Below, piece after piece: positions 26,938-56,576 of a stretch of DNA of 64,000 nucleotides. The translations under genes were made by a program, and so were the position numbers. Position 1 is the stretch's first letter. Every line of letters starts with the position of its first letter. Source of the stretch: Planctomycetia bacterium (GTDB lineage Bacteria; Planctomycetota; GCA-002687715); assembly GCA_005790545.1 (NCBI GenBank), contig SXUL01000068.1, forward strand, positions 20,623 through 84,622, in the 5' to 3' direction. The notes beneath the pieces are model-generated. The model made no database searches. It worked only from the letters and a program-made list of their open reading frames with translations, and had not been told where the DNA came from.

Positions 26938-26938
26938 T

Positions 26939-27556
26939 TCAGCGCCCGATGGTGACACCTTGGGGGATCTCCACTTCTTTCCGCATGTTCCAGAAGGCCC
27001 ATGCGGCGATGCGCAGTTCGGATTGGCGCTTCATGAGGGCGCGACCGCGATCGTCGTCCGGTCCGGCCGGATTCCGACAGACCACCTTGGTGCGTTGTCC
27101 ATCGAGTTCGAAGTAAAGACACCAGCGAAAGCGCTCGGGCAGAGTTCCGTTGCCCGTGATGAGGGGCTCATCGCCTGCTTCGAAAGGGGTCGCCAGTTCC
27201 GTCAGCCCCTTCTCCCCGAGCCCTTTCAGCATGCGGTCCACGAGGGACTCGGGAAGCACTTTGAAGGTCTGGTCCTGACTACCGAGTGCGATGGACAAGC
27301 GTCCGCGCTCGGTGGCGAGCCCGGGATGGCCCTCATTGACGGCAACGGCACGCGTGACCCGGTCCTTGATGTGGTCGTAGATCACCATCCGGACCGTGCG
27401 CTTGCGGGCTTCGGGTTGAGCGGTTGCGGACGCATCAGCCGAGGCAGCCGGCGAAGTCGTCGGGCCGCTGGCAGGGGCGGCGTTGCCGGGTGTCTGGCAA
27501 GCGGAAAGAAGGAAAGCCAACACCAAGAGAGGGAGGAGGGTCGGGCGCATACGCAT
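26939..27556 (-). CDS. hypothetical lipoprotein
   Basis: Signal peptide with lipobox MRMRPTLLPLLVLAFLLSAC, then an Ala/Pro/Ser-rich linker. It is the first gene of the lipoprotein-kdsB-pyrG-DUF1844 string. Confidence 0.7.
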   Translation of the reverse strand: MRMRPTLLPLLVLAFLLSACQTPGNAAPASGPTTSPAASADASATAQPEARKRTVRMVIYDHIKDRVTRAVAVNEGHPGLATERGRLSIALGSQDQTFKVLPESLVDRMLKGLGEKGLTELATPFEAGDEPLITGNGTLPERFRWCLYFELDGQRTKVVCRNPAGPDDDRGRALMKRQSELRIAAWAFWNMRKEVEIPQGVTIGR

Positions 27557-35513: not shown

Positions 35514-36860
35514 ATGCTTCTCGACCCCGATGGCGGGGCGGAGTTCTCAATCCCCGTGAAGATCGCGATTCTTGGTGGTGGCATCACAGGTGTAACCGCA
35601 GCCCGGCAGCTCGCCGCCGCGGGGCACTCTCTCGCCCTCTTCGAAGCAGGCGATCGGCTGGCCGGACTCTGCGCCAGCAGTGTCATCGACGGCTTCGTCG
35701 CTGATCACGCGGGCGGGCACATCCTCTTCTCGAAGGACAAGGAAGTCCTCGAGTTCATGCTGAAGGCGCTGGACGGCATCGGATACCACACCACCCGACG
35801 CGAGACGGCCATCCGCCTGAAGGGGCGCTACGTGCACTATCCCTTCGAGAACGGGCTCGGCGATCTCGAGGATGGTGATCGCTTCACCTGCTTGAAGGAC
35901 TACATCCTTGCGTGGCACGAACGCCGTTCGGGTGCCAAGGCAGCGCAGGATTTTCATGCCTGGTGCCTGTGGCGCTTTGGAAGGGGTATCTGCGAGCTGT
36001 TCATGCACCCCTACAACGAGAAGATCTGGAACGTGCCGCTCAGCGAACTGGGCACGTTCTGGGTGGAGGGCCGCGTTCCGGATGCGCCGATGGAGGATGT
36101 TCTCAGGAGCGCGCTCGGCACGCGCACCGAGGGCTATGTGCATCAGTCGATGTTCCACTACCCGCTCAGCGGAGGGTTCGAATCACTGGTGAAGGGAATG
36201 GCGCGTGGCCTGCCCCCTGATGTCGTGCGCCTGCAGACGCCCGTGACGAGTGTCGCGCGGGACGGAGCGGGTTTCGCTGTGAATGGAGAGCACTTTGATC
36301 AGGTGGTTTCCACGATTCCACTGCAGAGTCTCGGACGGGTGCTTGCGGGTGTTCCGGCCGCGCTGAAGCAGAGCTTCGCTGCGCTCGATCACGTTTCGTT
36401 GCGCAACGTCTTCATTGCGCTGGAGAAGAAGGATGCTCCGCCACTCTCCTGGATCTACTTCCCGCATGAAGCGGATGGTCCCCAGAACCGGGTGACGTGG
36501 CTTTCGAACTACAGTCCGCAGAATGCTCCGGCCGGGATGAGTTCCGTGATGGCCGAAGTGACGTGGTATCGCAATGCGCCGGGGAATCCCGCTGCCACGA
36601 CGGAGGCTGTGCTGAATGGCCTGGTGAAGAATGGACTCTTCACACGCGACGCGGTCCGCTTCACCCGCGTGTTCGACGTGGAGCACGCCTACATCCTCTA
36701 CCGGCACGGTCTGGAGGCGGAACTCGCGAAGCTGCGGGCATACACCGAGTCGCTCGGGCTGCACGTGGTCGGCCGCTTCGGCAACTACAGCTACTTCAAT
36801 TCGGATGCTTGCGTGCGCGCGGCGCTGGACAAGGCCGCCGAGATCACTGCGCGGAGCTGA
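35514..36860 (+). CDS. FAD/NAD(P)-binding oxidoreductase, amine-oxidase / UDP-galactopyranose-mutase-like
   Basis: Dinucleotide fold KIAILGGGITGVTAARQLAAAGHSLALFEAGDRLAGL. It is a paralogue of 49039..50532. Its stop abuts the convergent stop at 36861 (TGATCA). Confidence 0.8.
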   Translation: MLLDPDGGAEFSIPVKIAILGGGITGVTAARQLAAAGHSLALFEAGDRLAGLCASSVIDGFVADHAGGHILFSKDKEVLEFMLKALDGIGYHTTRRETAIRLKGRYVHYPFENGLGDLEDGDRFTCLKDYILAWHERRSGAKAAQDFHAWCLWRFGRGICELFMHPYNEKIWNVPLSELGTFWVEGRVPDAPMEDVLRSALGTRTEGYVHQSMFHYPLSGGFESLVKGMARGLPPDVVRLQTPVTSVARDGAGFAVNGEHFDQVVSTIPLQSLGRVLAGVPAALKQSFAALDHVSLRNVFIALEKKDAPPLSWIYFPHEADGPQNRVTWLSNYSPQNAPAGMSSVMAEVTWYRNAPGNPAATTEAVLNGLVKNGLFTRDAVRFTRVFDVEHAYILYRHGLEAELAKLRAYTESLGLHVVGRFGNYSYFNSDACVRAALDKAAEITARS

Positions 36861-38759
36861 TCAGAAACTCGTGAGCACCATGTGCCGCGAGGCGGATGTG
36901 CCGAGCACAGCGCCCCCGGCGTCGCTCACTTCGATGCGCCACGTGACGATGAGAGGGTCGTCTGCAGCGAAGACCTCTGTCGGAAGCGGCCAGTCGCCGA
37001 GTCCTGCGCTGGCGAGGAGTGGCTGAAGCGGGAGTGTGAGAGCACCATCCGCATCGCGTCCGAGCAGTGCGAGAGGTACAGCCAAGCGCAGACTCCGTCC
37101 GGGCACATCGAGAAGCACGCAGGCGGAGGCAGCGGCCGCAGAGACGCGGGCACGCAATACGGGCGGGGCCGAAGCCCTGCCGAGATGAACCGCCTCTTGC
37201 GGCGCCAGGAGTTCGACGGGTGCACCCTCGCCAGGTGTTGCGGTGGGGGTGAGATCGTGCACCCAAGGGGCCTTCGGGAGTGCGCGCAACCAGCGCAGCT
37301 GAAGTTCCATTGCGGCAGCGGTCGCGGCGGACTTGGCAAACAACGCAGGCCACTCGGCTTTGCGATCGAGGACGAACGCCTCGGCATTGCGCGCGTCCAT
37401 GAGGTAGGGCTGCCGCATCAGAAACGGGAGGTAGCTGTCCACCGTGGGTGCGCCGCTGTGTTCCGTGGGAACGTTGAAGACAAGCGCCAGATCGTTCTTG
37501 GTGGTGGCGGCATGAATACCCTGTTGCAGGCCGCGGACGGATGCGCCAGCCTCGACGTAGTTCGCGACGGATCCTGTATAGAGCATGGCGAAGAGCAGCA
37601 GCGCTGGGGCTGCCATCAGGCCCGCCTTCACGGGCGAGAGTGACAGGTGCGCAAGACACGCACCCAGGCACCCGAGTGGCAACGCCATCAAGTGATAGGC
37701 ACTGCGCCCGTTGAGGAGGTTGGGAAAAATGATGAACACGAACAACACCGGCGCCCAACTCAGAGCCAGCCAGCTCACACTGCTGAGGGCGAGAGCAGGC
37801 AACCCGGTTCCGCGTGCCCGCGAAAGGAGCGCGGTGCCGAGTGCTGCGGCGAATGAAACGCCCATGAGCAGCGTGAAGAGGAATCCGAGCCCGAGCGCAG
37901 GACCGGCGTCGCTGAAGGGGAAGAACAGGAGCTTCAGCGTGCGACCGAGATGCTCGAAGGTCCCGTTGGCCTCTGCGTAGGCGCTCATCGATGGGGTGCC
38001 GGCGTATCCGCCGGAGAAGCGCCCGAAGATGAGCCAGCGGCAGGCGAAGTAGAGCGCGACCAGCACGAGACTGCCGATGACCGCGATGCGGACAGCCTTG
38101 AAGCGGGTGCCCGGGCTGCCGTGCTGCAAGGCGAGCAGTCCCAGCATGGGAAACACGGCGAGAGCATGTTCGCGCGAGAGCAATCCGAGAGCCGCGTACA
38201 CGAAGGCCAAGACCAGATGTCTCGTGCGTGTGCCGCGCAACCAATCCATCCACGCCGAGAGCGCGGCGAGGGAGAAACCGAGCCCGAAGACCACGGTGCG
38301 CTGAGTGGTCCAGAGGATCGCCTCCGGTGCCAGGGGATAGAGCGAGAACAAGAGCGCGCCGAGAAAAGCTGCGCGCGGTGCGAGCGGGCCCGCGAGCAGT
38401 CTGCGCAGCAGTGCCTCAAGCAGGAGGACATTCACCACGTGTCCGAGGATGTTCCAGATATGGAAGGCCGCGGCGTTCGCTCCGAAGAGGCAGTAGTCGA
38501 GACCCCAAGTGAGCGCGGGCACAGGGCGCCAGATGTCATCCCAAGTGCGCGCGGTGGGCCAAAGCAACTGGTCGAAGAACGCGCCAGGGAGAAAGTGGCC
38601 CTCGGCATCCGTGAACATGGCGAGGCTCAGGTCGTCCTTCAAGAAATAGACTTGGAAGCCGGCGGCCGTTGTGCCGAAGGCGACGGCGATGAGAGCGAAC
38701 AGCGCGCCGCGTGCGCGAGCGGGTGTCACGGACCGGCTCCCAGGAGGAAAGAGGTCCAT
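36861..38759 (-). CDS. GT-C-fold membrane protein, TMTC/PMT_2-like N-terminal domain plus uncharacterised C-terminal domain (copy A)
   Basis: Post-TM1 motif VYFLKDD, then WRPVPALTWGLDYCLFG...AAFHIWNILGHVVNVLLL. About 11 TM segments and a ~230-aa soluble C-terminus. The start is ATG 38759, or the GTG at 38729 that forms a GTGA overlap. Confidence 0.7.
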   Translation of the reverse strand: MDLFPPGSRSVTPARARGALFALIAVAFGTTAAGFQVYFLKDDLSLAMFTDAEGHFLPGAFFDQLLWPTARTWDDIWRPVPALTWGLDYCLFGANAAAFHIWNILGHVVNVLLLEALLRRLLAGPLAPRAAFLGALLFSLYPLAPEAILWTTQRTVVFGLGFSLAALSAWMDWLRGTRTRHLVLAFVYAALGLLSREHALAVFPMLGLLALQHGSPGTRFKAVRIAVIGSLVLVALYFACRWLIFGRFSGGYAGTPSMSAYAEANGTFEHLGRTLKLLFFPFSDAGPALGLGFLFTLLMGVSFAAALGTALLSRARGTGLPALALSSVSWLALSWAPVLFVFIIFPNLLNGRSAYHLMALPLGCLGACLAHLSLSPVKAGLMAAPALLLFAMLYTGSVANYVEAGASVRGLQQGIHAATTKNDLALVFNVPTEHSGAPTVDSYLPFLMRQPYLMDARNAEAFVLDRKAEWPALFAKSAATAAAMELQLRWLRALPKAPWVHDLTPTATPGEGAPVELLAPQEAVHLGRASAPPVLRARVSAAAASACVLLDVPGRSLRLAVPLALLGRDADGALTLPLQPLLASAGLGDWPLPTEVFAADDPLIVTWRIEVSDAGGAVLGTSASRHMVLTSF

Positions 38760-40606
38760 GCTCCACAGGCTGCCGCTGGCTTGCCCGGCTGAGCAAGCAC
38801 GGAGAGCTTCATTGACGCATCCACGTAACCAGGCGCCGTGAAGAGCGCAGCGAGGCGTTCTTGCCCTTCCACCGGGAAGATGCCCTCCATGGCCGCTGCG
38901 GGCACACGCACGAGCATGCTGTCGCCTTCGCGCGACGCTTCGAGTCCGCGCAGGTCCGGGAGTCTCAGCACGAACGCGCCCTCACCCGCTGGCACACCGA
39001 CTTCAAGCAGGATCCAATCGGGAAGGGTTGCTCCCGCCACGCGGAACGCGATGCGTGTGTCCGGATCGGGTACTCCGCCGCGGACGGGGAAGCGTGATCC
39101 ACTGGCGGGCTGCAGGACATCCAGTCCTCGCTGATCTGCGTTGCGCGCAGGAACGACAAAGGTCTCGGCATCAAAGCCCGGCGCAGTGCCCGTTCGCTCC
39201 CTCAAGGCCACGAGATGGAGGGGGCCTGCGCGCCGCGTCAGCGCGTGGGAGACGCCGAGGGGCGCTGCGAGTCGCATGTCGTGCTGCGGGCCGTTGGCCG
39301 GATGAAAATAGAGCGGGAAGTGGGTTGCACCTGCGCCGAACAGCGGCACCCCGCGCTGCGTCGCTGGGAGCGGTTGGAAGTGGGTGACGAGGACTGGCGC
39401 GCCCGCGGGGAGCGCCGCAATGGGTGCCGTTGCTTCGCTGATGCAGCGTGCGGACGTGTGATAGGCATCGAGGCGCTCCAGCCATCCACCCAGGAAGACG
39501 AGAAGTGTGGCTCCGAGGATGAGGCACGCGCCCCGTGGCAGCAGCGTCGCCAGCGTGAGGAGCAGCGCGGCACCGGGCAGCAGGAACTTTCGCGCGCCAT
39601 CGAGCCACTCATCCACAATGAGGGCAGGCAGCCCGGCGAGGAGCAGTGCCATGCCCCACGCCAGCATGGCCATGCGCTCGCGCGCGAGCGAGGCCCGGGA
39701 GCGCCAGAGGAGGGCAAGGCTGGTGGCAAGAATCGCGACCCCGCCAAGGAGAAGCAACCTCGATGTTGCGCCGTTGGATGCGAATGGGAGCAAGAACATC
39801 TTGAGCGTCTGCGGGAGTTGCCGGAGCACGCTGTCCAGTGGAAACGACTCAGCGCCAGCGCCGTAGCGCGGCAGCCACACACCCGTCGCAGCCCAGCGCG
39901 TGAAGAGCATCAGCAGCATGGGTAGCAGTGTCGCGCCGCAGAGCTTCCCGAGGATGTTCCGCCGCCTGTCCCCAGGGGCGAGGAACCAGATGGCAGGCAG
40001 GAGCGCGAACGCCTCCGTGAGTGCACTGTCTTTCGAGAGCGCTGCCGCGAAGGTGCATGAGGAGACCAGCACAGGGAAACCGTGTGCTCCTCGCTGGATC
40101 CAACGCAGTGCCGCCAACATGGCCGCAAGCAGGAAGAGGGCATTGAGCAGTGTGAAGCGGTGTGCGACCCAGACCACCGGCTCGACACTCCACGGTGCGA
40201 TCAGGATGGACGCACCCGCGAGGATGGCCGGCCAGCGGCCGTCAGGCCCCAGCAAGCGCTGCGCGATGGAGTAGAGCAGCCAGGCGATGCAGCCGTGGAG
40301 GAGCCCGGCGATCCAACGGTGGGCAGCGACACCCTGCCCCAGCACGTACTCGTCGAGGATGAGTGAGAACCACCCGAGCGGTCGCCAGTGGTCATTGAAG
40401 CGCACCTCGGGGCGGAGCCCGAGAGCGGTGTCGAGGCACTGCTCAGCCACCAATGCACCACTGTTGTCATGCAGCAGCGGGCCTGCCACGAGGTCGTCCA
40501 GCAGGAACGGGACGTCGCGCGTGAGGAGGGGTGTGAGGAGTCCGGCGCAGAGAAAAACGGTCAGGGCGAGGATCGAACGGGCCGGCAGAGCACCGCTCTT
40601 CAGCAT
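38726..40606 (-). CDS. GT-C-fold membrane protein, TMTC/PMT_2-like (copy B, paralogue of 36861..38759)
   Basis: Motifs VPFLLDD, then HWRPLGWFSLILDEYVLG...AAHRWIAGLLHGCIAWLLY. The architecture matches copy A. Confidence 0.7.
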   Translation of the reverse strand: MLKSGALPARSILALTVFLCAGLLTPLLTRDVPFLLDDLVAGPLLHDNSGALVAEQCLDTALGLRPEVRFNDHWRPLGWFSLILDEYVLGQGVAAHRWIAGLLHGCIAWLLYSIAQRLLGPDGRWPAILAGASILIAPWSVEPVVWVAHRFTLLNALFLLAAMLAALRWIQRGAHGFPVLVSSCTFAAALSKDSALTEAFALLPAIWFLAPGDRRRNILGKLCGATLLPMLLMLFTRWAATGVWLPRYGAGAESFPLDSVLRQLPQTLKMFLLPFASNGATSRLLLLGGVAILATSLALLWRSRASLARERMAMLAWGMALLLAGLPALIVDEWLDGARKFLLPGAALLLTLATLLPRGACLILGATLLVFLGGWLERLDAYHTSARCISEATAPIAALPAGAPVLVTHFQPLPATQRGVPLFGAGATHFPLYFHPANGPQHDMRLAAPLGVSHALTRRAGPLHLVALRERTGTAPGFDAETFVVPARNADQRGLDVLQPASGSRFPVRGGVPDPDTRIAFRVAGATLPDWILLEVGVPAGEGAFVLRLPDLRGLEASREGDSMLVRVPAAAMEGIFPVEGQERLAALFTAPGYVDASMKLSVLAQPGKPAAACGAWTSFLLGAGP

Positions 40607-41529
40607 CGGAGCAGTACATCCCGCGAAATGATGGCGCGATGGAGCGGCGGGCCTTCGGGAACGACGGCGTCAGGCAGCACAACGCACTCCGACATGTCGC
40701 GTGCTGCGATCCGTGCGCCGGCACCGACTGTGCAGAGCGCCAAGCGCTCAAGAGCAGCAACGTGCGCGGACGGATCGACAAGATTTGCGAGCCCCTCGTC
40801 GCGGAGATGATCCACATTGCCGTCGAGGAGATCGTGCGGGAAAGTGACGTTCAGATCGTGATCAATGACGTTGGCGGCCCGGACGCGCCCGCCATCCTCC
40901 ACGAGGATCTGGATACTGGTGGTGATTTCGTACTCATCGCGGAGCGCGGTGCGCGGCGTTCTCCGGATGCAGTCGAAGATGGCATCCGAGAAGACATAGA
41001 TGCCACAGCCCTTGAGCAGGTTCTTTGGACGGCGCGGCTTTTCGATGACACGCGTGACCAAGCCTTCGGGGCCCGTCTCGACGGTGAAATTCTTCTGCAC
41101 GACCTTGGGGTCGCTTTCCTCCTTCACGGCCAGCACACCCGCGAGGTTCTGTTGCCGGAAGAGCTCCACCATTTCGCCGATGCGCGTCGAGCGGTAGTGA
41201 ATGTCGCCAAGGCAGAGGAGGAAGTCTCCTTGAACGTGGCGCTCGGCTTGCCCGACCGCATGAGCGATGCCGAGAATCTGCTCCTGTTCGACGTAGGTGA
41301 TTTCGACACCAAACGCTTCGCCTCTTCCGAAGTGCGCAATGATGCGTTCCATCAGGTGACCGACCACCATGACCACGCGCCGGATGCCGAGACTGCGCAT
41401 CATGGCAATGTGGTGCCCGAGGATGGGCACGTTGCCGATGGGCAGGAGAGGCTTCGGGTACTGCGCATTGAAAGGGTCGATGCGCGAGCCTTTGCCCGCC
41501 GAGAGGATGACGCCCGTCAGTTCAGACAT
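40600..41529 (-). CDS. sugar-1-phosphate nucleotidyltransferase (NTP_transferase plus left-handed beta-helix tail)
   Basis: GVILSAGKGSRIDPFNAQYPKPLLPI, followed by hexapeptide-like C-terminal repeats. It overlaps both neighbours (8 nt and 7 nt). Confidence 0.85.
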   Translation of the reverse strand: MSELTGVILSAGKGSRIDPFNAQYPKPLLPIGNVPILGHHIAMMRSLGIRRVVMVVGHLMERIIAHFGRGEAFGVEITYVEQEQILGIAHAVGQAERHVQGDFLLCLGDIHYRSTRIGEMVELFRQQNLAGVLAVKEESDPKVVQKNFTVETGPEGLVTRVIEKPRRPKNLLKGCGIYVFSDAIFDCIRRTPRTALRDEYEITTSIQILVEDGGRVRAANVIDHDLNVTFPHDLLDGNVDHLRDEGLANLVDPSAHVAALERLALCTVGAGARIAARDMSECVVLPDAVVPEGPPLHRAIISRDVLLRC

Positions 41530-42319
41530 GTTGCGTTCCAGTTGCCGGTTGTGCTGTCACGGCCGGAAGCCCCGGCTCGACGCCACGCCGCGCGTTCGGG
41601 ATGGACCGTTGCAGGCGCTTTCTGAAGATGCAGCGGAACATCTTGAGCGCCGTGCGTGCGATGGCCAGCAGCCCGCGCGAGTGTTTGGATTCGCCGCCTT
41701 CGCGCCGCCCGTAGTGCACGGGAATCTCGATGACGCGCAAACGGTGCCGCAGCGCTTCGCAGATCATTTCGGGTGAGAAGCCGGGGCCGGCCTCACGGGT
41801 TCCGTCGCGGATGATGCGCCACGCGCTCTTGTGCAGCGTGCGATACGTGCAACCAACGTCTGTGAGGCGCGGTTCATTCGGGATGTACCAGAGCAGTTCC
41901 AGGATCTTCGCTGCGAGCACATTGCCCCAGCGGAGTTTCCTGTCCATGTTGGCGCCCTGTCCGACCATCTGTCGCGTTGTGCGCGTGCCGAGCACCATGG
42001 CACAGTCGTCGATGTAGGAGAGGAACTTGTCGATGTCCGTCGCCGCGAACGAGCCATCAGCCTCGGTGAGGATGAAGATGTCCCCGGTGGCTCGGTCCAT
42101 CCCGCAGCGGAGTGCATGCCCATAGCCAGCGGCGGATTCCTCGACCACACGCGCACCCGCGGCGAGAGCAATGGCCTGGGTCTTGTCGCGGCAGTTGTTG
42201 TCCACCACCAGCACTTCGTCGACCAGGCGATGCGCGCGGAACTGTCGCACCACGTCGCCGATGGTGGCCTCCTCGTTGTGCGCGGGAATGATGACGCTCA
42301 GCGTGCGGTTCTTCAGCAC
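41522..42319 (-). CDS. family 2 glycosyltransferase, DPM1/polyprenyl-phosphate sugar synthase-like
   Basis: LSVIIPAHNEEATIG, VVDNNCRDKT and TEADGSF. The ORF-track start at 42370 is a TTG. I prefer the GTG at 42319, which gives VLKNRTLSVIIP... and a 7-nt overlap with the upstream stop. Confidence 0.82.
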   Translation of the reverse strand: MLKNRTLSVIIPAHNEEATIGDVVRQFRAHRLVDEVLVVDNNCRDKTQAIALAAGARVVEESAAGYGHALRCGMDRATGDIFILTEADGSFAATDIDKFLSYIDDCAMVLGTRTTRQMVGQGANMDRKLRWGNVLAAKILELLWYIPNEPRLTDVGCTYRTLHKSAWRIIRDGTREAGPGFSPEMICEALRHRLRVIEIPVHYGRREGGESKHSRGLLAIARTALKMFRCIFRKRLQRSIPNARRGVEPGLPAVTAQPATGTQHV

Positions 42320-49032: not shown

Positions 49033-49038
49033 GTGAGC

Positions 49039-50532
49039 TCAGCCGAAGTATTCCTGGCCTGAAGCCACGCGCGCGTGGTCGGCGCCTTGGCCTGCGAGGT
49101 TCTCCGCGGCGGCGAGGCCCATGCCGATGCTGTGATCCATGTTGTTGTACTTGAAGAGCCCTTGTCGGCCGGTGGTGATCAGTCCACCCACGCTGTTGGT
49201 GTGCGCAAGCACGCGGTCCCGGTGAGCACGGTATTCAAGATCGTAGATGGGGTAGGCGTAGCGCTCGCGGCGCGAGAAGGTCTTCAGGATCTCGCTTTCG
49301 CGGATGAGTCCCAAGCGCCCCATGTCTTTCACCACGATGGCCTGCAACTCGGCATCGGACATGTTCCACTCGGCATCGCCATAGTCACAGGTGATCTCGG
49401 CGCAAAGGAGTGTCTTGTCAGGAGGAGCGGATTCCGCGGAGAAGTTCTTGAACTCGCTCAAGCGGTGCGTGGTGAGCGTCTGCTCCGGAAGATAGATCCA
49501 GTGATCCGGCGTGACCGTGGGGCGCGAGAGGATCATGTAGACGAAGATCATGGAGCGGTGCTTCATGGCCTCGACGGAGCGCACCACCTCGACGGGCGCG
49601 GCAGGGGCAAGCAGTTTCGCCAGCACGGTGACCGGAATGGTGGAGATCACTCGTGTCGCATCGAAGCGCTGGCGCCGGCCTTGCAGCATCACGCTGACGC
49701 CAGCGATGCGGCCCTCGGCATGATGCACTTCATCGACGCGGGCATTCGTGATCACTTGTGAGCCTGCGTTCCGGATCTCCTCCGTGTAGCGCTCGCAGAG
49801 TTTGCCGATGCCGCCGCGGCGTGGATAGAAGAACTTCGAGACGTAGGTGCGGGGCACGTTGCCGTCGCGCGAACGGAAGAGCGTCTTCTTGACGGTGTCC
49901 CAGAGACTGAGCAGCGAGATGCGCTGCGCAGCCCAGTCAGCACTGATCCGGTTGCAGGGGATACCCCAGGTCTTCTCGGTGTAGGTCCCGAAGAAGACGT
50001 CGTAGAGCTTGCGCCCGAAGCGATTCACCACCCAGTTCTCGAAGTTGTCGTCCGGTTTGCGGGAGACGATGTTGCGCAACTTCACGAGGATGTAATCGAG
50101 GAAGGCCTTGGCGAGAACGAGAGGCGGGAGGCTCCTGAGGACATTGCCGCCTTGCAGCGGGTAGTGGAAGAAGCGCCCGTAGAGGTAGATGCGTGACTGG
50201 CGCGCGGCCCAGACGATGTCGTTGCCGATGAGGCTCATGGCCTCGTCCATCACGTGCTTGTCGGTGGTGTGGAAGCGGTGGGGGCCGTTGTCGTAGTCGA
50301 ACTCGCCCCACTCGGTCTTGAGGGTGTGGCTGGCAGCGAGACCACCCACGTGGTCATCCGCTTCGAGGACCGTCACCTTCCAGCCCATGCGCACGAGGCG
50401 CAGCGCCGCAGAGAGCCCCGCCAGACCGGCGCCGAGCACGAGCGCATCCTTCGGACCATCCGCGCGGCCGGCCACGCAGCGGCTTTGGTGCTCAGGAGCG
50501 GAATCGGTCTGGCCGCAGCGGGGACAATTCAT
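49039..50532 (-). CDS. FAD-dependent oxidoreductase, UDP-galactopyranose-mutase/amine-oxidase-like, with a short Cys-rich N-terminus
   Basis: MNCPRCGQ...C, then ALVLGAGLAGLSAALRLVRMGWKVTVLEADDHVGGL and NGPHRFHT (compare Glf GPHIFHT as I recall it). It is the first gene of the long minus-strand operon. Confidence 0.8.
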   Translation of the reverse strand: MNCPRCGQTDSAPEHQSRCVAGRADGPKDALVLGAGLAGLSAALRLVRMGWKVTVLEADDHVGGLAASHTLKTEWGEFDYDNGPHRFHTTDKHVMDEAMSLIGNDIVWAARQSRIYLYGRFFHYPLQGGNVLRSLPPLVLAKAFLDYILVKLRNIVSRKPDDNFENWVVNRFGRKLYDVFFGTYTEKTWGIPCNRISADWAAQRISLLSLWDTVKKTLFRSRDGNVPRTYVSKFFYPRRGGIGKLCERYTEEIRNAGSQVITNARVDEVHHAEGRIAGVSVMLQGRRQRFDATRVISTIPVTVLAKLLAPAAPVEVVRSVEAMKHRSMIFVYMILSRPTVTPDHWIYLPEQTLTTHRLSEFKNFSAESAPPDKTLLCAEITCDYGDAEWNMSDAELQAIVVKDMGRLGLIRESEILKTFSRRERYAYPIYDLEYRAHRDRVLAHTNSVGGLITTGRQGLFKYNNMDHSIGMGLAAAENLAGQGADHARVASGQEYFG

Positions 50533-50677
50533 GGGGAACTTGAGGCACTTGGCGACGCCCGAGTGAGCGCTGCCGGTGTGGCAGAAACTACCACATGGCG
50601 CTCTGTATCGTCAAAGCGGGCGGCAGATTCAAACCTCTGTCGCAGGTGAGTTTAGAAACACTCGCGCGGCCGCCGAA

Positions 50678-51628
50678 ATGTTGCCGCACGGGTGCGCGAG
50701 GGATAGCATCCGGCATCACCCGCCACGCTGCCTGAGGGCCCTCTTCTTGATCGCACTTGTCCGCCAATCGCTGCGCTTCAGAGAACTCATCGGAACGCTG
50801 ATCAGCCGGGATTTGCGCGCCCGTTACCGGGGCAGCATTCTCGGTCAAGCATGGATGGTGCTCCAGCCGCTCGCGTTCCTCGCCGTCTTCTATGTGGTCT
50901 TTGGCTCGTTCCTCGCGAGCCGCATGCCCGCGGAGCTCGAGGCCCGCACCGGCTACTTCGCCCTGGCCATGTTCTGCGGACTCATCCCCTGGATCGGATT
51001 CAGCGAGAGCATCACGCGCGCAGCCACCTGCATCGGTGAGAGCGGGAGCCTGATCAAGAAGTTCGCCTTCCCGTCCGAGATCCTGCCGGTGACGCTGGTT
51101 CTCAGCGGGCTGGCGCAGACGCTCGTCGGCTTCGGCATCCTCGCGCTCGCGGTGTTCGTGTTGCATGGTGAGTTGCCGAATCACATCTGGGTGCTGCCCA
51201 TCGCGTTGATCCTGCAAGTGGTGTTCACACTCGGGCTGTCTTTGTTTCTCGCGGCAGCCTGCGTCTTCGTGCGCGACATCGGCAGCATGATGCCCATGCT
51301 CATGAACTTCTGGTTCTTCATGACCCCGATCTTCATGTTCGGTCGTTTCGAGCAGAACGAGATCACCGCCACGGTGATGCGCTGGAATCCGATGAGCTAC
51401 CTCATCGAGAGTTATCGAGCGATCTTCATCTATCACCCGGCGGACTGGCAGGCGATGCTGGCCACATCCACTCCGGAGATGCGCGCGAAAATGCCGCTGG
51501 TGCCTGCCGACGTGACGAGTCCGCCGCTTTGGTGGCTGGGGATCTTCGCGCTCATCGCCGTGGTCACGCTCGCCATCGGCTACACCGTCTTCATGCGCGC
51601 CCGCATGCGCTTCGCGGACGAGGTCTGA
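50678..51628 (+). CDS. ABC-2 type polysaccharide exporter permease (Wzm/TagG-like)
   Basis: RELIGTLISRDLRARYRGSILGQAWMVLQPL followed by 6 TM segments. The start is uncertain; ATG 50678 was chosen within ORF 50576..51628. Confidence 0.8.
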   Translation: MLPHGCARDSIRHHPPRCLRALFLIALVRQSLRFRELIGTLISRDLRARYRGSILGQAWMVLQPLAFLAVFYVVFGSFLASRMPAELEARTGYFALAMFCGLIPWIGFSESITRAATCIGESGSLIKKFAFPSEILPVTLVLSGLAQTLVGFGILALAVFVLHGELPNHIWVLPIALILQVVFTLGLSLFLAAACVFVRDIGSMMPMLMNFWFFMTPIFMFGRFEQNEITATVMRWNPMSYLIESYRAIFIYHPADWQAMLATSTPEMRAKMPLVPADVTSPPLWWLGIFALIAVVTLAIGYTVFMRARMRFADEV

Positions 51629-51629
51629 C

Positions 51630-52826
51630 ATGGGACGCGTCATCGTCAACGACCTCGGCAAGCGCTACAAGATCTATCCGGACTCTTGGTCCCGCGTGAT
51701 CGAGTGGGCCTCCGGTGGACGCGCTCGCCGTCACGAAGAGAAGTGGGCATTGCGCGGCGTGAGCTTTGAAGTGCCGCGCGGCAGTTCGCTCGGGGTGGTG
51801 GGCGCGAACGGCGCCGGCAAATCCACCTTGCTGAAGATCCTCGCGGGAACGACCCTGCCGACCACCGGCAGTTACAGCATCGAAGGCCGATTGGGGTCAT
51901 TGCTCGAGTTGGGTGCAGGGTTCCATCCCGAGTTCAGCGGCAAGGACAACATCTTCATGAATGCCGCGATCATGGGCATTCCGAAGGCTGAAGTGCGCGC
52001 GCGCTTCGAGGAACTCGCCGAGTTCGCCGAAGTCGGGGAGTACCTTCTGCGCCCGGTGCGCACCTACTCCTCGGGCATGAGCATGCGGCTCGCCTTTGCC
52101 GTCGCCATGATGTCGCGCCCCGATGTGCTGATCCTCGACGAGGTCCTGGCGGTCGGAGACCAGCACTTCCAGAAGAAGTGCATGGACAAGGTGCGCGAGA
52201 TCCGCATGTCGGGCACCACAGTCTTGTTCGTTTCACACTCCGTCTATCACGTGCGCCAGATCTGCGACAACGCCATCTGGATTCATGATGGCGCGGTGGT
52301 GACCTCAGGCAATCCCATCAACGTGACGGATGAGTACGTGAATTTCCAGTATGCACTTTCGGGTGGACAGTCGGCTCAGGCGGCGAAGAAAGCGGATCAG
52401 CAACCCGTTGCCGGTCAGCCGCATCTGGGCGACATGAAGATCACCGCTGCAGGCGCGGATGAATGGCGCGCTGATTTTCGAAGCGGTGAGATGGTGGATA
52501 TTCATGTGGACGTGCGGAACCCCGGTGGTTCCGGGCGCTTCCATGTAGGCGTCATCGTGAATCGCAATGACGACGTGCAAGTGTTCTCCGCGCGCACGCT
52601 CGAAGGTGGCACGGCGTTCGAAGGTGCCGGAGGCACCATGCGCTTGCGCGTGCCGCTGGCTCTCACCAGCGGCGAGTTCTACGTCAGCGGTTATCTCCTC
52701 GACGAGAGTTGCGAGCACGTGATGGATCAGCGCCTCAGTTGGTGCCGTTTCAAGGTGCAACATGGGGGCATGGAGAAGGGCGTGTTTCTTGCGAACACGC
52801 AGTGGGTCAAGAACGGCGCCCCATGA
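51630..52826 (+). CDS. polysaccharide ABC exporter ATP-binding protein with C-terminal beta-sandwich (Wzt_C-like) domain
   Basis: Walker A GANGAGKST, signature YSSGMSMRLAFA, Walker B VLILDEVLAVGD. A ~150-aa C-terminal extension carries FRSGEMVDIHVDV...GEFYVSGYLLD. Confidence 0.9.
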   Translation: MGRVIVNDLGKRYKIYPDSWSRVIEWASGGRARRHEEKWALRGVSFEVPRGSSLGVVGANGAGKSTLLKILAGTTLPTTGSYSIEGRLGSLLELGAGFHPEFSGKDNIFMNAAIMGIPKAEVRARFEELAEFAEVGEYLLRPVRTYSSGMSMRLAFAVAMMSRPDVLILDEVLAVGDQHFQKKCMDKVREIRMSGTTVLFVSHSVYHVRQICDNAIWIHDGAVVTSGNPINVTDEYVNFQYALSGGQSAQAAKKADQQPVAGQPHLGDMKITAAGADEWRADFRSGEMVDIHVDVRNPGGSGRFHVGVIVNRNDDVQVFSARTLEGGTAFEGAGGTMRLRVPLALTSGEFYVSGYLLDESCEHVMDQRLSWCRFKVQHGGMEKGVFLANTQWVKNGAP

Positions 52827-54481
52827 GTGAAGCGCCCCGCAACGCGTTCGGTCCGAACTGGCCGCTGCGGAACGTGGAGGAGACTTGCCGGCACTTCGGG
52901 CTTGGTGCTGACGAGCGCGTGCTGGAAGTCGGCGGCGCAGGCAACCCGTTTCCGCGCGCGAATGTTGTCTGTGATCTCAGCTTCGGTGGCTGTGCCCAGA
53001 GAAATGGTGCCCCCGGAGTCCTGCGCCGGGATGTCCAGTACGTGGAAGCGCCTGCCGAGAAGCTGCCCTTTGCCGATGGCGCGTTCGATTTCGTCTACTG
53101 CACGCAGGTCCTCGAACACGTGCTGGATCCCGTGGCCGCCGCGCGTGAACTTTCGCGCGTGGCCCGTCGGGGTTTCGTGGAGGTTCCGAGTCGCGCAGGC
53201 GAGATGATCAACGGCAATCCGACCCACCGATGGGTCGTGGACCGTGAGGGCGAGATGCTCGTCTTCACACCGCGCACCTACGCGGAGCACCCCTTCAGGA
53301 ACTTCTTCTACGGATTGCTGTTTCATGATGGTGAGTTGCGCACGCGTGCCGAACACACCTTCAGGAACGTGCTGAATCATCAGGTGTTGTTCGAGGGTGG
53401 ACTCGCGGTGCGCGTGGCCCCCGCTCCTGCGGAGGTCTTTCAATACGACGACGCTGATGCGGCTGCCTGGGCCCATCTCAGTTTCGCTGCGCATACGTTG
53501 CGAGGCGGCGCCGACCCGATGTATGGCTTCCCGGATGCGCTCGAAGCTGTGCGCCTGTTGCCAACGGATGCGGGAGCACGTCAGTTGCTTGCGCTCTATC
53601 ACCTGAGGCTTCTGCGGCCTGCGGATGCGGTCGAAGCGCTGGCAGGATTGGATGACGAGCGCTCCTGTGTGTTGCGCCAGGCCGCGTTGCAACTGCAAGC
53701 GGGGTGCCCGTTCGATCCGGCCACTCTGCCTGTGCCTGAGCCGGTGCGTGGCGGTGCGGCGCCAGGGCTCCGCCCCAAGGTGACCCTGCTGGTCGTCGGT
53801 GAGGAGGCGGAATCGCTGAGAGCGAGCCTTGAATCAGCGCTGACCCAGGACTACCCGGAAACGGAAGTGGTGGTGGCGACCAGTCTCGCGCGCGAGGAGG
53901 TGCTGGCAGGCCTCGATATGGGTGCGCGCTTGAAGTTCGTGGCGCTTCCCCGGGGAAGCTCCACGGGGTGTGCGCTCAACCGTGCGGCCATGCAGGCGAG
54001 CGGAGCTTGTGTGGGGTTCCTTGTGGCGCCGGACCGCTTGATGGCCCAGCATGTGGACCGGCTGGTCGCTGCACGCTCGCTCTCCGGTGCCGACGTGGCG
54101 GTCGCCGATGCACTTCTTGGCGACGGCAGTGTGCTGCGCGTGGACTGGCGTGTTGGCAATCCTGCACTGGCAGCGCTTCCTCTCTCTGCCGTCCTCGTGC
54201 GCAGCGAGGCTGCGCTCGCCTGCGGTGCGTTTCCGGAAGAGGGCAGTGATGCACCTGAGCGCTGGTTGCACCGCCTTGCCCAATCGCAGCGTGCGGTTGC
54301 CGTGCGCGAAGTGACCCTGAAGTGCCTCGCTCGCAAGGATGCGGAGGCCAGTGCGCTCTCTGTTGCGGAAGCAGCCCTCGCCTTGAAACCGCAGGAGCTG
54401 CTGCGCGATCTGATGGCTGCGCATGTGCGCGAAGAAGGGCTGCGTGCGGAGATCCGGAGACTGAAGGGGAGCGCGTCGTGA
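52823..54481 (+). CDS. fusion protein: N-terminal SAM-methyltransferase domain, helical linker, C-terminal GT2-like domain
   Basis: The ATG at 52823 forms an ATGA overlap with wzt. Motifs VLEVGGAGNP and FDFVYCTQVLEHVLDP. Later KVTLLVVGEEAESLRASLESALTQDYPETEVVV. A coiled-coil-like tail reads LRDLMAAHVREEGLRAEIRRLKG. Confidence 0.7.
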   Translation: MSEAPRNAFGPNWPLRNVEETCRHFGLGADERVLEVGGAGNPFPRANVVCDLSFGGCAQRNGAPGVLRRDVQYVEAPAEKLPFADGAFDFVYCTQVLEHVLDPVAAARELSRVARRGFVEVPSRAGEMINGNPTHRWVVDREGEMLVFTPRTYAEHPFRNFFYGLLFHDGELRTRAEHTFRNVLNHQVLFEGGLAVRVAPAPAEVFQYDDADAAAWAHLSFAAHTLRGGADPMYGFPDALEAVRLLPTDAGARQLLALYHLRLLRPADAVEALAGLDDERSCVLRQAALQLQAGCPFDPATLPVPEPVRGGAAPGLRPKVTLLVVGEEAESLRASLESALTQDYPETEVVVATSLAREEVLAGLDMGARLKFVALPRGSSTGCALNRAAMQASGACVGFLVAPDRLMAQHVDRLVAARSLSGADVAVADALLGDGSVLRVDWRVGNPALAALPLSAVLVRSEAALACGAFPEEGSDAPERWLHRLAQSQRAVAVREVTLKCLARKDAEASALSVAEAALALKPQELLRDLMAAHVREEGLRAEIRRLKGSAS

Positions 54482-55608
54482 GAACACCCGACGTCAGCGT
54501 CGCCATCGTGAACTTCAATTCGGCCGCCATGCTGGAGGGGCTGCTCGGCAGTCTCAAGGAAGACGCGTTCAGCGTGGAGGGGCGAGAAGGGCGCATGGAA
54601 ATCCTCGTGGTGGACAACGCATCGCGTGCGGAAGACCATCACTTGCTGGAGGCTGTCTGTCAGCGCGCCGGTGCCCGACTGCTCCGGAACTCCGAAAATG
54701 TGGGCTATGCCATCGCGAACAATCAGGCCTTGCATGCCGCACGGGGCCGCTGGCATGTCGTCTCCAACCCGGATGTGCTGGTGAAGCCGGGGTGCATGGC
54801 CGCTCTCATCGGGGCTCTCGAAACGACGCCCGGCGCGGCACTGGTCGGGCCGCTTGCGAGTATGGACCTCGCGGGCGATGTGTTGTTGCCACCCAACGAA
54901 CTGCCTGAGCCATTCAACGAGAGCCTGGTCAGCATCGCCCGCACTCATCCAGGCGTGGCACGTTTCCATGTGCGGCGCCGAGCGCGCTTCGCGCGGACCT
55001 ACTGGACTGCCGCTGCGCCCTTGCGCCTGCCCATGCTCTCCGGCGGGTTCTTCCTCGGTCGTCGTGAAACACTCCTCAAGCACGGGCTGTTCGATGCGGG
55101 GTATCCGCTCTATTACGAAGACACCGATTTGTTCCGGCGCTACCACCAGCGAGACCTCGGTCTCTGGCACGTTCCTGCGGCGCGCATCGTGCATCACTTC
55201 TCGCGTTCGGCGCTGCCGCGCATGAAGGCGGCCATGTACAGGAACGGCGTGGGAGCGCAGCGATACTTCCGGCAGCATTTCGGTGAAGCTGGAGAGAGGC
55301 TCTTGCAGACTCTCGTCGCGCGCGCGCGGCTCCACGCGGAAGATCAGCGTGTCCCGTGGGTGGTGCAAGAGTTGCAGCCGTCAGCCATGGCTCCTGTGGT
55401 GGATGTCGCGCAGGCCGACGCGTGTGTCGAGGTATCGGGCAACGCAAAATTCTCGCTGACAGTCGGCATCTTTCCCGGCAAGGCTGGCCCGTTCCGCTTG
55501 CCGCAACCTTTCTGGGACAGCCTCGCCTGCACGCACTACTGGATTCGCACCGTGGACCCGGAGACGGGTGACACACTGCAAGCATGGAGAGCCACGCGAT
55601 GCCCGTAG
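54478..55608 (+). CDS. family 2 glycosyltransferase (rhamnosyltransferase-like)
   Basis: The GTG at 54478 forms a GTGA overlap. Motifs VSVAIVNFNSAAML, VVDNASRAED, NVGYAIANNQ and YYEDTDL. Confidence 0.8.
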   Translation: MRTPDVSVAIVNFNSAAMLEGLLGSLKEDAFSVEGREGRMEILVVDNASRAEDHHLLEAVCQRAGARLLRNSENVGYAIANNQALHAARGRWHVVSNPDVLVKPGCMAALIGALETTPGAALVGPLASMDLAGDVLLPPNELPEPFNESLVSIARTHPGVARFHVRRRARFARTYWTAAAPLRLPMLSGGFFLGRRETLLKHGLFDAGYPLYYEDTDLFRRYHQRDLGLWHVPAARIVHHFSRSALPRMKAAMYRNGVGAQRYFRQHFGEAGERLLQTLVARARLHAEDQRVPWVVQELQPSAMAPVVDVAQADACVEVSGNAKFSLTVGIFPGKAGPFRLPQPFWDSLACTHYWIRTVDPETGDTLQAWRATRCP

Positions 55609-56576
55609 AAGCGACCGATGTGAGCTACGGGCCGTTCGAGCCCGGCGATGAGCACGAGATTGTGCGCGTGTTCAACAAGGTCTTCGGACAGCAGCGCAAG
55701 TTGGCGACTTGGGAATGGGAGTACAACCGGAACCCGGCGGGGCGGCACATCTTTCTGGCGAAACAACCGAGCGGTCGTGTGCTCTCGCAGTTTTGCGGCA
55801 TTCCGCGGGTCATGCGCGCCGGCGGCGGGACCGCCTGTTTCGGCGAGATCGTGGACAGCATGACCGATCCCGAGTTCCGCATGGGTTTGAAGCGCCCGGG
55901 CCTCTTCGCAACCACCTGTTACGAGTTTGTCGAGTTCTTCGGCCGCCCCGAGCGCGAAGTGATCATGTACGGCCTTCCGAATCCGCAGGCCTTCCGACTT
56001 GGCGGCAAGCTCCTCGGGTACTCGCATCTTTATGACGTGCAGTTCATGACGACAACGGCGCTCTCCGGCCCCATGCCGGCTTCCGCAACACGCGCGCAAG
56101 CACTTCCGGATGATTGGGATGCCTTTGAGCTGCGCCATTCTGCGCGGCATCCGGTGACCACCCTGCGCGATCGTCGTTACCTCAACTGGCGCTACCTCGA
56201 GCATCCGGATGTGCGTTACGAACTTCTCACCTTCCGGGATGACAGCGGTTCACTGTTCGCACTCGCGGTGCTGCGTCATGATTGGCTCGGAGAGAAGGTG
56301 ACGGCTTGCGCAGAACTTCTCGTTGAGCATGAACATCCGCGCGCGCTCGAAGTGAACGACGCGTTGCGGGCGGCGGCCGCGGCCGCGGGCAGCGAGCGCG
56401 TGCAGGTATTCGTGCGTCCGGATTCCCTCGAATGGGTCGGGCTTGGATCCATCGGCTGGCATCCGGAGCCGACGCAGTTCCGCTTCGTGGCCCGCACTTA
56501 CGATGCTGTGAATCTCCCACTCGAAGGGCTGAAATATGGCTGGAGCGTGAGCCTCGGAGACTTCGACATCGTCTGA
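55584..56576 (+). CDS. GNAT-like acyltransferase family protein (putative)
   Basis: N-terminus FEPGDEHEIVRVFNKVFGQQRKLATWEWEYNRNP and the overall ~330-aa two-lobe layout resemble GNAT/Eis-like proteins. ATG 55599 is an alternative start. Confidence 0.6.
   Translation: MESHAMPVEATDVSYGPFEPGDEHEIVRVFNKVFGQQRKLATWEWEYNRNPAGRHIFLAKQPSGRVLSQFCGIPRVMRAGGGTACFGEIVDSMTDPEFRMGLKRPGLFATTCYEFVEFFGRPEREVIMYGLPNPQAFRLGGKLLGYSHLYDVQFMTTTALSGPMPASATRAQALPDDWDAFELRHSARHPVTTLRDRRYLNWRYLEHPDVRYELLTFRDDSGSLFALAVLRHDWLGEKVTACAELLVEHEHPRALEVNDALRAAAAAAGSERVQVFVRPDSLEWVGLGSIGWHPEPTQFRFVARTYDAVNLPLEGLKYGWSVSLGDFDIV

Follow-up and report, generated by a model that had tools for sequence, protein, structure and literature searches.

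A predicted envelope-glycan locus in uncultured Planctomycetota, joining Wzm-Wzt export genes to four GT-C-class membrane proteins

Gene content and organization of the locus

We are interested here in a set of 15 genes at positions 35514-56576 of a 64,000-nucleotide stretch of Planctomycetia DNA (contig SXUL01000068.1), the whole of which we call the window. The genes, labelled A to O, form two divergent operons together with one convergent gene, and their open reading frames (ORFs) were confirmed at the coordinates claimed for them in a first-pass annotation of the same DNA (Table 1). The minus-strand operon contains two methyltransferases, a nucleotidyltransferase, a predicted lipid-sugar synthase, one of two UDP-galactopyranose-mutase (UGM) homologues and the four large membrane proteins; the plus-strand operon contains the ABC exporter. 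Ten genes had been counted in the minus-strand operon. The operon itself stands, but both the sequence and the first-pass list of its genes give nine, B to J. The G+C content of the window is 63-67% throughout.

Table 1. Features of the locus, in window coordinates; lengths are in amino acids (aa), and bit scores refer to Pfam unless another source is named.
Feature	Coordinates	Strand	Length	Assignment	Evidence or remark
A	35514-36860	+	448	Eukaryote-type UGM homologue	PDB and Pfam matches; convergent with B, the last gene of the minus-strand operon
B	36861-38729	-	622	PMT-like GT-C membrane glycosyltransferase	Sub-threshold PMT_2; AlphaFold2 (AF2) model and Foldseek
C	38726-40606	-	626	Second, divergent PMT-like GT-C	AF2 model and Foldseek; beta-rich C-terminal domain
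D	40600-41529	-	309	Sugar-1-phosphate nucleotidyltransferase	NTP_transferase, 97.8 bits
E	41522-42319	-	265	ArnC/DPM1/GtrB-like GT2, predicted polyprenyl-phosphate-sugar synthase	Glycos_transf_2, 71 bits
F	42313-44820	-	835	YfhO-family GT-C	PF09586
G	44817-47345	-	842	YfhO-family GT-C	PF09586
H	47345-48106	-	253	Class I S-adenosylmethionine (SAM) methyltransferase	Methyltransf_11, 70 bits
I	48106-49032	-	308	Class I SAM methyltransferase	Methyltransf_23, 104 bits
J	49039-50532	-	497	UGM-superfamily flavoprotein, PRK07208 type	NF005548; first gene of the minus-strand operon
K	50747-51628	+	293	Wzm, ABC-2 permease	ABC2_membrane, 65.4 bits; six hydrophobic segments
L	51630-52826	+	398	Wzt nucleotide-binding protein	ABC_tran, 75 bits; C-terminal carbohydrate-binding-type domain
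M	52823-54481	+	552	Methyltransferase, helical linker, degenerate GT2-like domain, conserved C-terminal helix	Methyltransf_11, 50 bits
N	54478-55608	+	376	GT2 glycosyltransferase	Glycos_transf_2, 61 bits; Glyco_tranf_2_3, 33 bits
O	55584-56576	+	330	Protein, possibly an acyltransferase	Weak GNAT-type N-terminal match
Minus-strand operon	50532 to 36861	-		Nine genes	Order J, I, H, G, F, E, D, C, B
Plus-strand operon	50747-56576	+		Five genes	Order K, L, M, N, O
Divergent intergenic region	50533-50746	.		214 nucleotides (nt)	Sole non-coding gap of the locus, between the operons

Inside each operon the genes are tied together by overlapping starts and stops. The junctions named in the first-pass annotation were all correct when checked base by base: a gap of 6 nt between J and I (TGA-GCTCAC-ATG, 49032/49039), TGATG at both I/H (48106) and H/G (47345), ATGATG at G/F with an ATGA overlap at 44820, a 7-nt overlap at F/E (GTGCTGA, 42319), an 8-nt overlap at E/D (ATGTCTGA, 41529), and a 7-nt overlap at D/C (ATGCTGA, 40606). 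To these we add a GTGA overlap at C/B (38729). On the plus strand, K and L are separated by 1 nt, L/M and M/N share ATGA and GTGA respectively, and N and O overlap by 25 nt. A scan of the divergent region between the operons for promoter and terminator consensus sequences gave no match of either kind, the sigma-70 consensus included, a result that is uninformative for a planctomycete host.

At the other end of the minus-strand operon, the stop codons of A and B abut (TGA|TCA at 36860/36861, window 36858-36863), leaving zero intergenic bases between these convergent genes. No terminator hairpin fits between them, and so the two transcripts would have either to overlap or to end within the opposing gene. 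The gap is nearly as tight, at about 3-8 nt, in two of the relatives described below (contigs L002 and L011).

GT-C membrane proteins

The locus had been described as encoding four membrane transferases of the GT-C fold, and our searches bear this out, by Pfam threshold for F and G and by structural modelling for B and C. The first two are each assigned to YfhO (PF09586) at 34.1 bits, above the gathering cut-off of 28.5, with matched stretches that are partial; they are 27% identical to one another, and F has multiple transmembrane segments and a C-terminal anchor. Almost all of the 166 homologues of G that we collected also carry PF09586.

The remaining pair is more divergent. B and C are distant paralogues, 28% identical across the N-terminal 320 aa, and C has no Pfam or NCBIfam match. 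Its family is very small; the sole remote relatives are membrane proteins bearing TPR repeats, some of which are annotated as protein O-mannosyltransferases. Sequence-only searches of the PDB with B, and likewise with G, gave nothing meaningful, and for this reason we assign B and C to the GT-C fold on the basis of AF2 models compared by Foldseek. The model of C has a mean predicted local distance difference test score (pLDDT) of 80.3 and a predicted template-modelling score of 0.83. In the model of B the membrane domain exceeds a pLDDT of 90 and the C-terminal half is poor (pLDDT <50), so that we make no fold claim for that half. Every significant PDB match of the two models is a GT-C enzyme, with probability 1.00: for C, ArnT (5f15) at 2.3e-5, followed by ALG12, STT3, PglB, Pmt4, AftD, EmbA/B and DPY19; for B, with Pmt4, STT3, AglB, ArnT and PglB at the top. 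An alignment of 40 sequences shows, in addition, that the first loop contains two adjacent Asp residues (D42 D43 in B, D37 D38 in C) that hardly vary, and that certain His, Glu and Lys positions are conserved.

The modelled C-terminal domain of C, about 220 residues long, is rich in beta structure. When isolated, the C-terminal domains of B and C match no further Pfam family even at E<=1, and neither protein has TPR repeats. Hence the earlier label 'TMTC/PMT-like' holds for the likeness of the membrane domains but not for TMTC, which would call for a TPR domain; the models place the resemblance to PMT and TMTC enzymes only at the level of fold and motif. The start of B may be GTG 38729 (622 aa) or ATG 38759 (632 aa); the representative-library entry P0162 (622 aa) uses GTG.

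Export operon and methyltransferases

The Wzm and Wzt genes that had been recognized on the plus strand are confirmed, and the glycan-binding type of C-terminal domain that had been read on the latter is likely. We set the start of K at TTG 50747, which matches its orthologues. For L, the best PDB match is the full-length Wzt of Aquifex aeolicus (8dku/7k2t), which bears a carbohydrate-binding domain (CBD) and aligns with residues 6-365 at E 5e-66; matches to TarH/TagH and to mycobacterial RfbE/Wzt follow at 1e-45 to 1e-57. The tail of L is 75-93% identical among the orthologues of the four closer lineages considered below. From the alignment with the Aquifex protein we conclude that a carbohydrate-binding domain is likely to be present on this tail, with binding itself predicted.

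M had been read as a fusion of a methyltransferase with a GT2 glycosyltransferase. Its methyltransferase half is well supported, including a weak match to a sugar O-methyltransferase (6uv6), but an active GT2 half is not: the C-terminal GT2 match is weak (22-24 bits), and where a DxD motif would be expected, within residues ~320-430, the window protein and its orthologues in the two closest relatives have APD and two further orthologues have APA. Because the DxD-type motif has been lost, the GT2-like half is probably non-catalytic. The methyltransferase domain and the C-terminal helix ALKPQELLRDLMAAHVREEGLRA (residues ~510-545) are almost invariant across orthologues, which suggests for the GT2-like domain and the helix a role in scaffolding or protein interaction rather than catalysis. 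M is a candidate chain terminator or capping enzyme, in which neither a WbdD-type kinase nor a long coiled-coil ruler is detectable.

The DNAS, NPD and EDTD motifs are conserved in N, as expected of the GT2 enzyme it had been taken for, and given the probable inactivity of the GT2-like half of M, N appears to be the only clearly intact cytoplasmic polymerizing glycosyltransferase of the locus. The last gene, O, reaches 23.8 bits against Acetyltransf_9 (cut-off 25), has no PDB or NCBIfam match, and gains no further Pfam family at E<=1; it is 63-89% identical in all relatives. We regard it as possibly GNAT-like, on a weak match. In the opposite operon, Pfam confirms the two SAM methyltransferases H and I. 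H has a hydrophobic C-terminal segment at residues 172-200, and the translation of I shows an N-terminal CxxC...CxxC motif.

Predicted sugar-donor genes

The families proposed earlier for the donor genes, a DPM1-like GT2 (E) and a sugar-1-phosphate nucleotidyltransferase (D), are supported by profile and PDB searches. The leading NCBIfam models for D are an archaeal GlmU N-domain, AglF and long RmlA, all of which remain under cut-off; consequently no specific sugar can be assigned, and D is best described, from its sequence, as a generic sugar-1-phosphate nucleotidyltransferase. For E the leading models are AglJ, a Dol-P-hexose transferase and PpgS, again all under cut-off. Among solved structures E matches ArnC over its full length (1.4e-8) and the dolichol-phosphate mannose synthase of P. 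furiosus (4.4e-5), and its VVDNN, EAD and GGESK motifs are conserved.

A and J, previously called UGM-like flavoproteins, are indeed UGM homologues in which the active-site residues are kept, according to NCBIfam and PDB sequence searches. The top PDB match of A is the T. cruzi UGM (4dsg, E 3.5e-44, residues 14-427 aligned), and Pfam reports Amino_oxidase and NAD_binding_8. Its GGH loop, WVEGR, the NR of 'PQNRVTW', HAY and 'GNYSY' align with UGM residues His62, Arg176, Arg327, Tyr395 and Tyr429. J scores 390.8 bits against NF005548 (cut-off 389), a model annotated merely as 'hypothetical protein', and matches the eukaryote-type enzymes AfUGM and TcUGM at E ~1e-24, with the T. cruzi enzyme aligned over 30-491; HMMER alignments pair its flavin-loop His, both Arg and both Tyr with the UGM residues. 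The two proteins are paralogues (27% identity), and neither reaches the bacterial Glf model TIGR00031 (34.5 bits for A and 58.3 for J, against a cut-off of 303.75). By sequence, then, both look to be of the long, eukaryote-like UGM type.

Conservation across relatives

Contigs of relatives were reached through homologues of G from independent metagenomes, and synteny was assessed by tblastn with all window proteins. The complete 15-gene order is present in four lineages. Identity to the window proteins is 79-97% in one of these (L004) and 58-90% in another (L001); the others are a metagenome-assembled genome (MAG) from a Swiss lake, labelled Singulisphaera (L005, CAMDTN010000051.1), and the Lake Baikal Planctomycetota MAG Baikal-deep-G176 (L002/L006). 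Wherever these contigs reach far enough the flanking genes are kept as well. A scan of 185,579 species-representative genomes returned two occurrences, the Swiss-lake and Baikal MAGs; this is a lower bound on the distribution, since the scan used one short peptide pattern.

An exhaustive search with B gave 28 full-length clusters at E<=1e-30. For three of them the contig DNA could be recovered and the neighbouring genes were informative (L010, L011 and L012; G+C 61-74%). The order H-G-F-E-D-C-B|A-RNase HII persists across the three, with only the L011 contig spanning the whole block, and here the GT-C proteins F, G, C and B are just 33-38% identical to those of the window. Gene A is syntenic in L002, L011 and L012. 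In total, therefore, the gene order recurs in at least seven metagenomic lineages of Planctomycetota; its recurrence on contigs from independent metagenomes, with proteins 35-95% identical to those of the window, shows that the genes are not grouped by chance. The organisms that share the locus form a clade of uncultured Planctomycetota, most of them from fresh water.

The GT-C proteins diverge fastest, at 44-53% identity in the Baikal MAG compared with 60-82% for the other locus proteins. C is found in L001, L004, L010, L011 and L012 and is missing from the Baikal MAG, where the region equivalent to window 36861-40606 (16.7-18.6 kb of L002/L006) holds only an orthologue of B, at 48% identity. 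We considered whether C might be a recent lineage-specific insertion, and rejected this because the distant L010-L012 contigs have both C-like and B-like genes. Both genes are thus ancestral, and the absence of C from the Baikal MAG is better read as a loss.

The locus is not shared by the neighbourhoods of remote YfhO homologues (L007-L009), which are unrelated; the presence of a YfhO gene does not in itself imply this architecture. In one of these neighbourhoods (L007, GCA_964561605.1, 4.3-17.6 kb) a tandem array of three YfhO genes diverges from a PMT_2 gene and from the genes for two large proteins that carry no annotation, and there is no ABC transporter in the vicinity. Grouping of several GT-C genes may be more widespread in these bacteria. 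The Swiss-lake contig carries the label 'Singulisphaera sp. GP187' (Isosphaeraceae), and the species-representative scan gave only this contig and the Baikal MAG, with no cultured Isosphaeraceae. The taxonomic label may be unreliable.

Genomic surroundings

On one side the locus is flanked by an RNase HII-like gene, a HEAT-repeat protein, AnmK and a sigma-54 response regulator, and on the other by a 231-aa protein without assignment and a radical SAM enzyme of the MqnC/CofH type. Farther off, the window contains a xanthine-dehydrogenase-type molybdoenzyme with an FAD subunit and a MobA-like gene (9298-13466), and a complete glycine-cleavage operon encoding T, H, P1 and P2 (18986-23557). These surroundings are those of an ordinary chromosomal region and speak against a mobile island.

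About 20 kb from the locus lies a MurJ-like gene of the MOP family (34 bits, 14881-16302, plus strand), followed by a GT2 gene (to 17228). The start of the MurJ-like gene is uncertain: the ORF 13441-16302 overlaps an ORF for a PUA-methyltransferase on the opposite strand. It is the sole flippase-type gene of the window and a possible candidate for the lipid-sugar flippase that is absent from the locus. On the minus strand, at 24515-26958, a CTP synthase gene is followed by one for a KdsB-like CMP-Kdo synthetase (CTP_transf_3, 26197-26958). The latter suggests that the organism makes 3-deoxy-D-manno-octulosonic acid (Kdo), and with it probably a lipopolysaccharide (LPS) core, to which the polymer could be anchored.

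AT skew on the plus strand is strongly positive, up to +0.23, at window 38001-48000. This stretch coincides with the membrane-protein genes of the minus strand, in which hydrophobic codons make the coding strand rich in T. A mirror-image negative skew occurs at 14-18 kb, above the plus-strand MurJ-like and GT2 genes.

A model of the pathway and its alternatives

Protein families and folds, operon structure and synteny are established directly by the results above; from these we infer which sugars and which acceptor are involved, in what order the steps occur and to what the product is finally anchored. A and/or J would make a furanose nucleotide sugar, most likely UDP-galactofuranose (Galf being the sugar residue). 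N would polymerize a simple backbone on a polyprenyl-diphosphate primer, itself supplied by a phosphoglycosyltransferase encoded elsewhere, and M, possibly with H and I, would methylate the chain, its non-reducing end included; M would also provide a scaffold, through its degenerate GT2-like domain and its conserved C-terminal helix. Wzm-Wzt would export the lipid-linked polymer, the tail domain of Wzt recognizing the capped end. In a parallel branch, D would make a nucleoside-diphosphate (NDP) hexose and E would move the sugar onto polyprenyl phosphate, an unlinked flippase would turn this lipid-sugar over, and F, G, B and C would then use it outside the cytoplasmic membrane, adding side chains to the exported polymer or extending it. 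This sequence of cytoplasmic assembly and capping, ABC export, and glycosylation by GT-C enzymes from a polyprenyl-phosphate sugar had already been proposed in the first-pass annotation, and among the models we have considered it fits best; we assign it a probability of roughly 60%.

Several observations weigh against it. Just as had been reported, no Wzy, Wzz or WaaL is found among the ORFs of the whole window; the same ORF scan finds no primer phosphoglycosyltransferase (WecA/WbaP), no ligase of the WaaL/Wzy_C type or O-oligosaccharyltransferase, and no GtrA, Wzx or MATE flippase. The overlapping or abutting genes of the locus leave no free coding space for a flippase. In known systems, the genes for the primer transferase and the ligase are often unlinked (PMC11127046). 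Some of the assignments are themselves marginal: Wzt_C (PF14524) reaches 27.3 bits on L, slightly under its cut-off of 30.4, and PMT_2 (PF13231) reaches 23.3 bits on B, under its cut-off of 26.1. A PDB search with M at E<=0.1 gave generic methyltransferases and not WbdD. E has no hydrophobic segment and no transmembrane helix, and so lacks a membrane anchor; the GT2 family to which it belongs includes enzymes with soluble acceptors, one of which, GpgS, is its top PDB match over the N-terminal third. The conserved adjacency of the two operons is the single indication that they would act on one molecule, and in these organisms the glycan is a prediction from genes. Finally, the content of the locus has remained fixed over deep divergence, unlike the serotype-variable loci for O antigens, which argues for a conserved 'common' envelope polymer in place of a serotype-variable O antigen.

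The most substantial alternatives concern what the GT-C enzymes do. In mycobacteria the Emb/Aft and Mpt enzymes build arabinan, and the mannan of lipomannan and lipoarabinomannan (LM/LAM), from decaprenyl-phosphate-arabinose or polyprenyl-phosphate-mannose. By analogy, the exporter here might deliver only a short Galf-containing primer, on which three or four GT-Cs would act as processive or successive polymerases drawing on one polyprenyl-phosphate-sugar donor; the product would be an arabinogalactan-like polymer of two domains in a diderm planctomycete. The presence of a single clearly intact cytoplasmic glycosyltransferase (N, with the GT2 domain of M lacking DxD) agrees with such periplasmic polymerization, as do the ratio of four GT-Cs to one lipid-sugar synthase and one nucleotidyltransferase and the ancestral, syntenic character of the GT-C genes. 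UGM, GT2, Wzm-Wzt and GT-C together also make up the parts list of mycobacterial arabinogalactan; Emb and AftD occur among the Foldseek matches of B and C, and the beta-rich C-terminal domain of C is comparable with the carbohydrate-binding modules (CBMs) of EmbC and GT136 (PMC11127046). At the level of sequence, however, polymerization cannot be told from decoration with single residues, the characterized YfhO and PMT_2 enzymes of Firmicutes add single side-chain sugars (PMC8035078), and the Baikal lineage has lost C yet kept the rest, which suggests that at least one GT-C is dispensable. We consider polymerization in the periplasm doubtful. Its combination with the fixed gene content, in which a conserved 'common antigen' would be made from a methyl-capped Galf primer, exported through CBD-gated Wzm-Wzt, and given its bulk in the periplasm by the GT-Cs, strikes us as unlikely.

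It is important also to ask whether the acceptor is a polysaccharide at all. The S-layer glycans of Geobacillus bear a methyl cap and are made with Wzm/Wzt and with WsaE, in which a methyltransferase is fused to a glycosyltransferase; the S-layer proteins of anammox planctomycetes carry methylated O-glycans. These precedents favour a protein target: B and C might O-glycosylate secreted or surface proteins, with extension by the YfhO enzymes, or else, on the analogy of the Geobacillus and Paenibacillus S-layer pathways, an ABC-exported, methyl-capped glycan might be placed onto a surface-layer protein. The solved structure closest to B is in fact the protein O-mannosyltransferase Pmt4, the remote TPR-bearing relatives of B and C include proteins annotated with that function, and the window has no WaaL ligase. 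Yet B and C have neither the TPR nor the MIR domains that recognize protein substrates in TMTC and PMT enzymes, no Wzy_C-type O-oligosaccharyltransferase gene occurs in the window, and bacterial GT-Cs of the PMT_2 type commonly act on polysaccharides (PMC8035078), so that we think a protein target quite improbable. The operons might, moreover, be independent neighbours, K-O forming an ABC-exported polymer system and B-J a separate GT-C system that acts on another acceptor, such as peptidoglycan, lipid A-core or a different polysaccharide. They are linked only by adjacency and a common divergent region of 214 nt, the L010-L012 contigs end too soon to reveal whether wzm-wzt is attached, and YfhO homologues occur elsewhere in unrelated contexts. 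But the adjacency is kept in all four of the lineages with adequate contigs, while the orthologue of G drops to 44% identity; K-O has no nucleotide-sugar genes of its own, the UGM homologues lying in or beside the other operon; and a CBD-bearing Wzt needs a terminal modification, with two of the three methyltransferases encoded in that other operon. Two unconnected systems seem to us very unlikely, and the single pathway of export followed by GT-C glycosylation remains the preferred reading.

Comparison with known systems

The first-pass annotation knew of no described system with this composition. The logic of the pathway turns out to be known already, from the work discussed below (PMC11127046, PMC8035078) and from mycobacterial arabinogalactan; for the exact combination of genes we found no counterpart.

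The closest parallel is provided by the O antigens of Citrobacter youngae O1/O2 (Kelly et al. 2024), whose loci provide for export by Wzm and a CBM-bearing Wzt, for chain termination with methyl phosphate by a WbdD-like protein, and for glycosylation after polymerization by a GT-C that ends in a CBM (PMC11127046). A similar three-component system on ABC-dependent Klebsiella O antigens, including Klebsiella O2, is cited in the same paper (PMC11127046). The predicted features of our locus agree with those of C. youngae in Wzm and a Wzt with a C-terminal CBM, a terminator containing a methyltransferase, a backbone made in the cytoplasm, and glycosylation after export, from a polyprenyl-phosphate sugar, by a GT-C that carries a carbohydrate-binding domain at its C-terminus. 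The differences are several. Each of the C. youngae and Klebsiella systems has one GT-C (GT136 or GtrC-like) and a dedicated flippase gene (MATE or GtrA), whereas the locus has three or four GT-Cs of the YfhO and PMT-like kinds and no flippase gene; C. youngae employs a lipid-pentose synthase dependent on phosphoribosyl pyrophosphate (PRPP), whereas the locus has an ArnC/DPM1-type synthase without membrane anchor; and the locus lacks both WbdD similarity and variability of the serotype type.

Pairing of YfhO-type and PMT_2-type GT-Cs with GT-A lipid-sugar synthases is, in its turn, standard in the 'multi-component transmembrane glycosylation systems' of bacteria, for example CsbB/GtcA/YfhO, GtlA/GtlB, CsdAB/CD/EF of L. 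lactis and GacI/J/K/L of S. pyogenes acting on an ABC-exported rhamnan, all in Firmicutes (PMC8035078). The locus shares with these the same two GT-C classes and a predicted GT-A synthase, which may be without an anchor (the GacI type); the flippase is often unlinked there too (GtcA, CflA), and the acceptor may likewise be an ABC-exported polysaccharide (PMC8035078). Those systems, however, belong to monoderms and have one GT-A per GT-C and side chains of a single sugar (PMC8035078), whereas the locus belongs to a diderm planctomycete, has one GT-A for up to four GT-Cs in a single operon, and adds the UGM homologues and three methyltransferases.

Mycobacterial arabinogalactan is assembled by Glf, GlfT1/2 and Wzm-Wzt (Rv3781/Rv3783), followed by the Emb/Aft arabinosyltransferases of the GT-C class (PMC13018209, PMC10951656). 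The resemblance extends to a furanose donor made by UGM, a lipid-linked galactan made by GT2 enzymes, export by Wzm-Wzt, and the use of one polyprenyl-phosphate sugar by several GT-Cs. The mycobacterial donor, decaprenyl-phosphate-arabinose, is there made via PRPP and DprE1/2, in contrast to an NDP-sugar and a DPM1-like GT2 here; the mycobacterial GT-Cs are of other families (GT53, GT85 and others), and the UGM is of the short bacterial type. The mycobacterial Wzt, with a chain of 260-263 aa, has no CBD, in contrast to the CBD-type tail of L. In this last respect L would be like the Wzt of Aquifex aeolicus, its best PDB match. Capped, CBD-gated ABC export is also known from E. coli O8/O9a and from the common polysaccharide antigen of P. 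aeruginosa, where methyltransferases are encoded alongside, as in our locus; the Pseudomonas locus, moreover, is conserved and not hypervariable, as is the one described here. To our knowledge none of the E. coli O8/O9a, Aquifex and P. aeruginosa common-antigen systems includes GT-C enzymes.

Envelope glycans of Planctomycetota are almost unstudied, and the organization of the cell envelope in this phylum was for a long time disputed. In the literature on O-antigen, LPS and glycosyltransferases of Planctomycetes we found no characterized counterpart, and no characterized envelope-glycan locus for the phylum. What we describe is a well-supported annotation of a variant, and not a new principle. 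If the GT-Cs should prove to polymerize and not to decorate, it would parallel, independently, the way in which mycobacteria assemble arabinan or mannan, and would be the first extracytoplasmic GT-C polymerization pathway of such kind outside Actinobacteria. We found no described counterpart for the combination of an operon in which three or four GT-Cs, drawn from two families, go with just one predicted lipid-sugar synthase, two long-type UGM paralogues, a fusion of a methyltransferase to a degenerate GT2, and this host phylum. The locus is further distinguished by the absence of flippase, primer and ligase genes within it, by having only one clearly active cytoplasmic polymerizing glycosyltransferase, and by its fixed content. 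It thus offers a concrete, conserved and testable set of genes for one planctomycete envelope polymer, and it extends the scheme of ABC export plus extracytoplasmic GT-C glycosylation, known from the systems compared here, to a new phylum and in an unusually GT-C-rich form.

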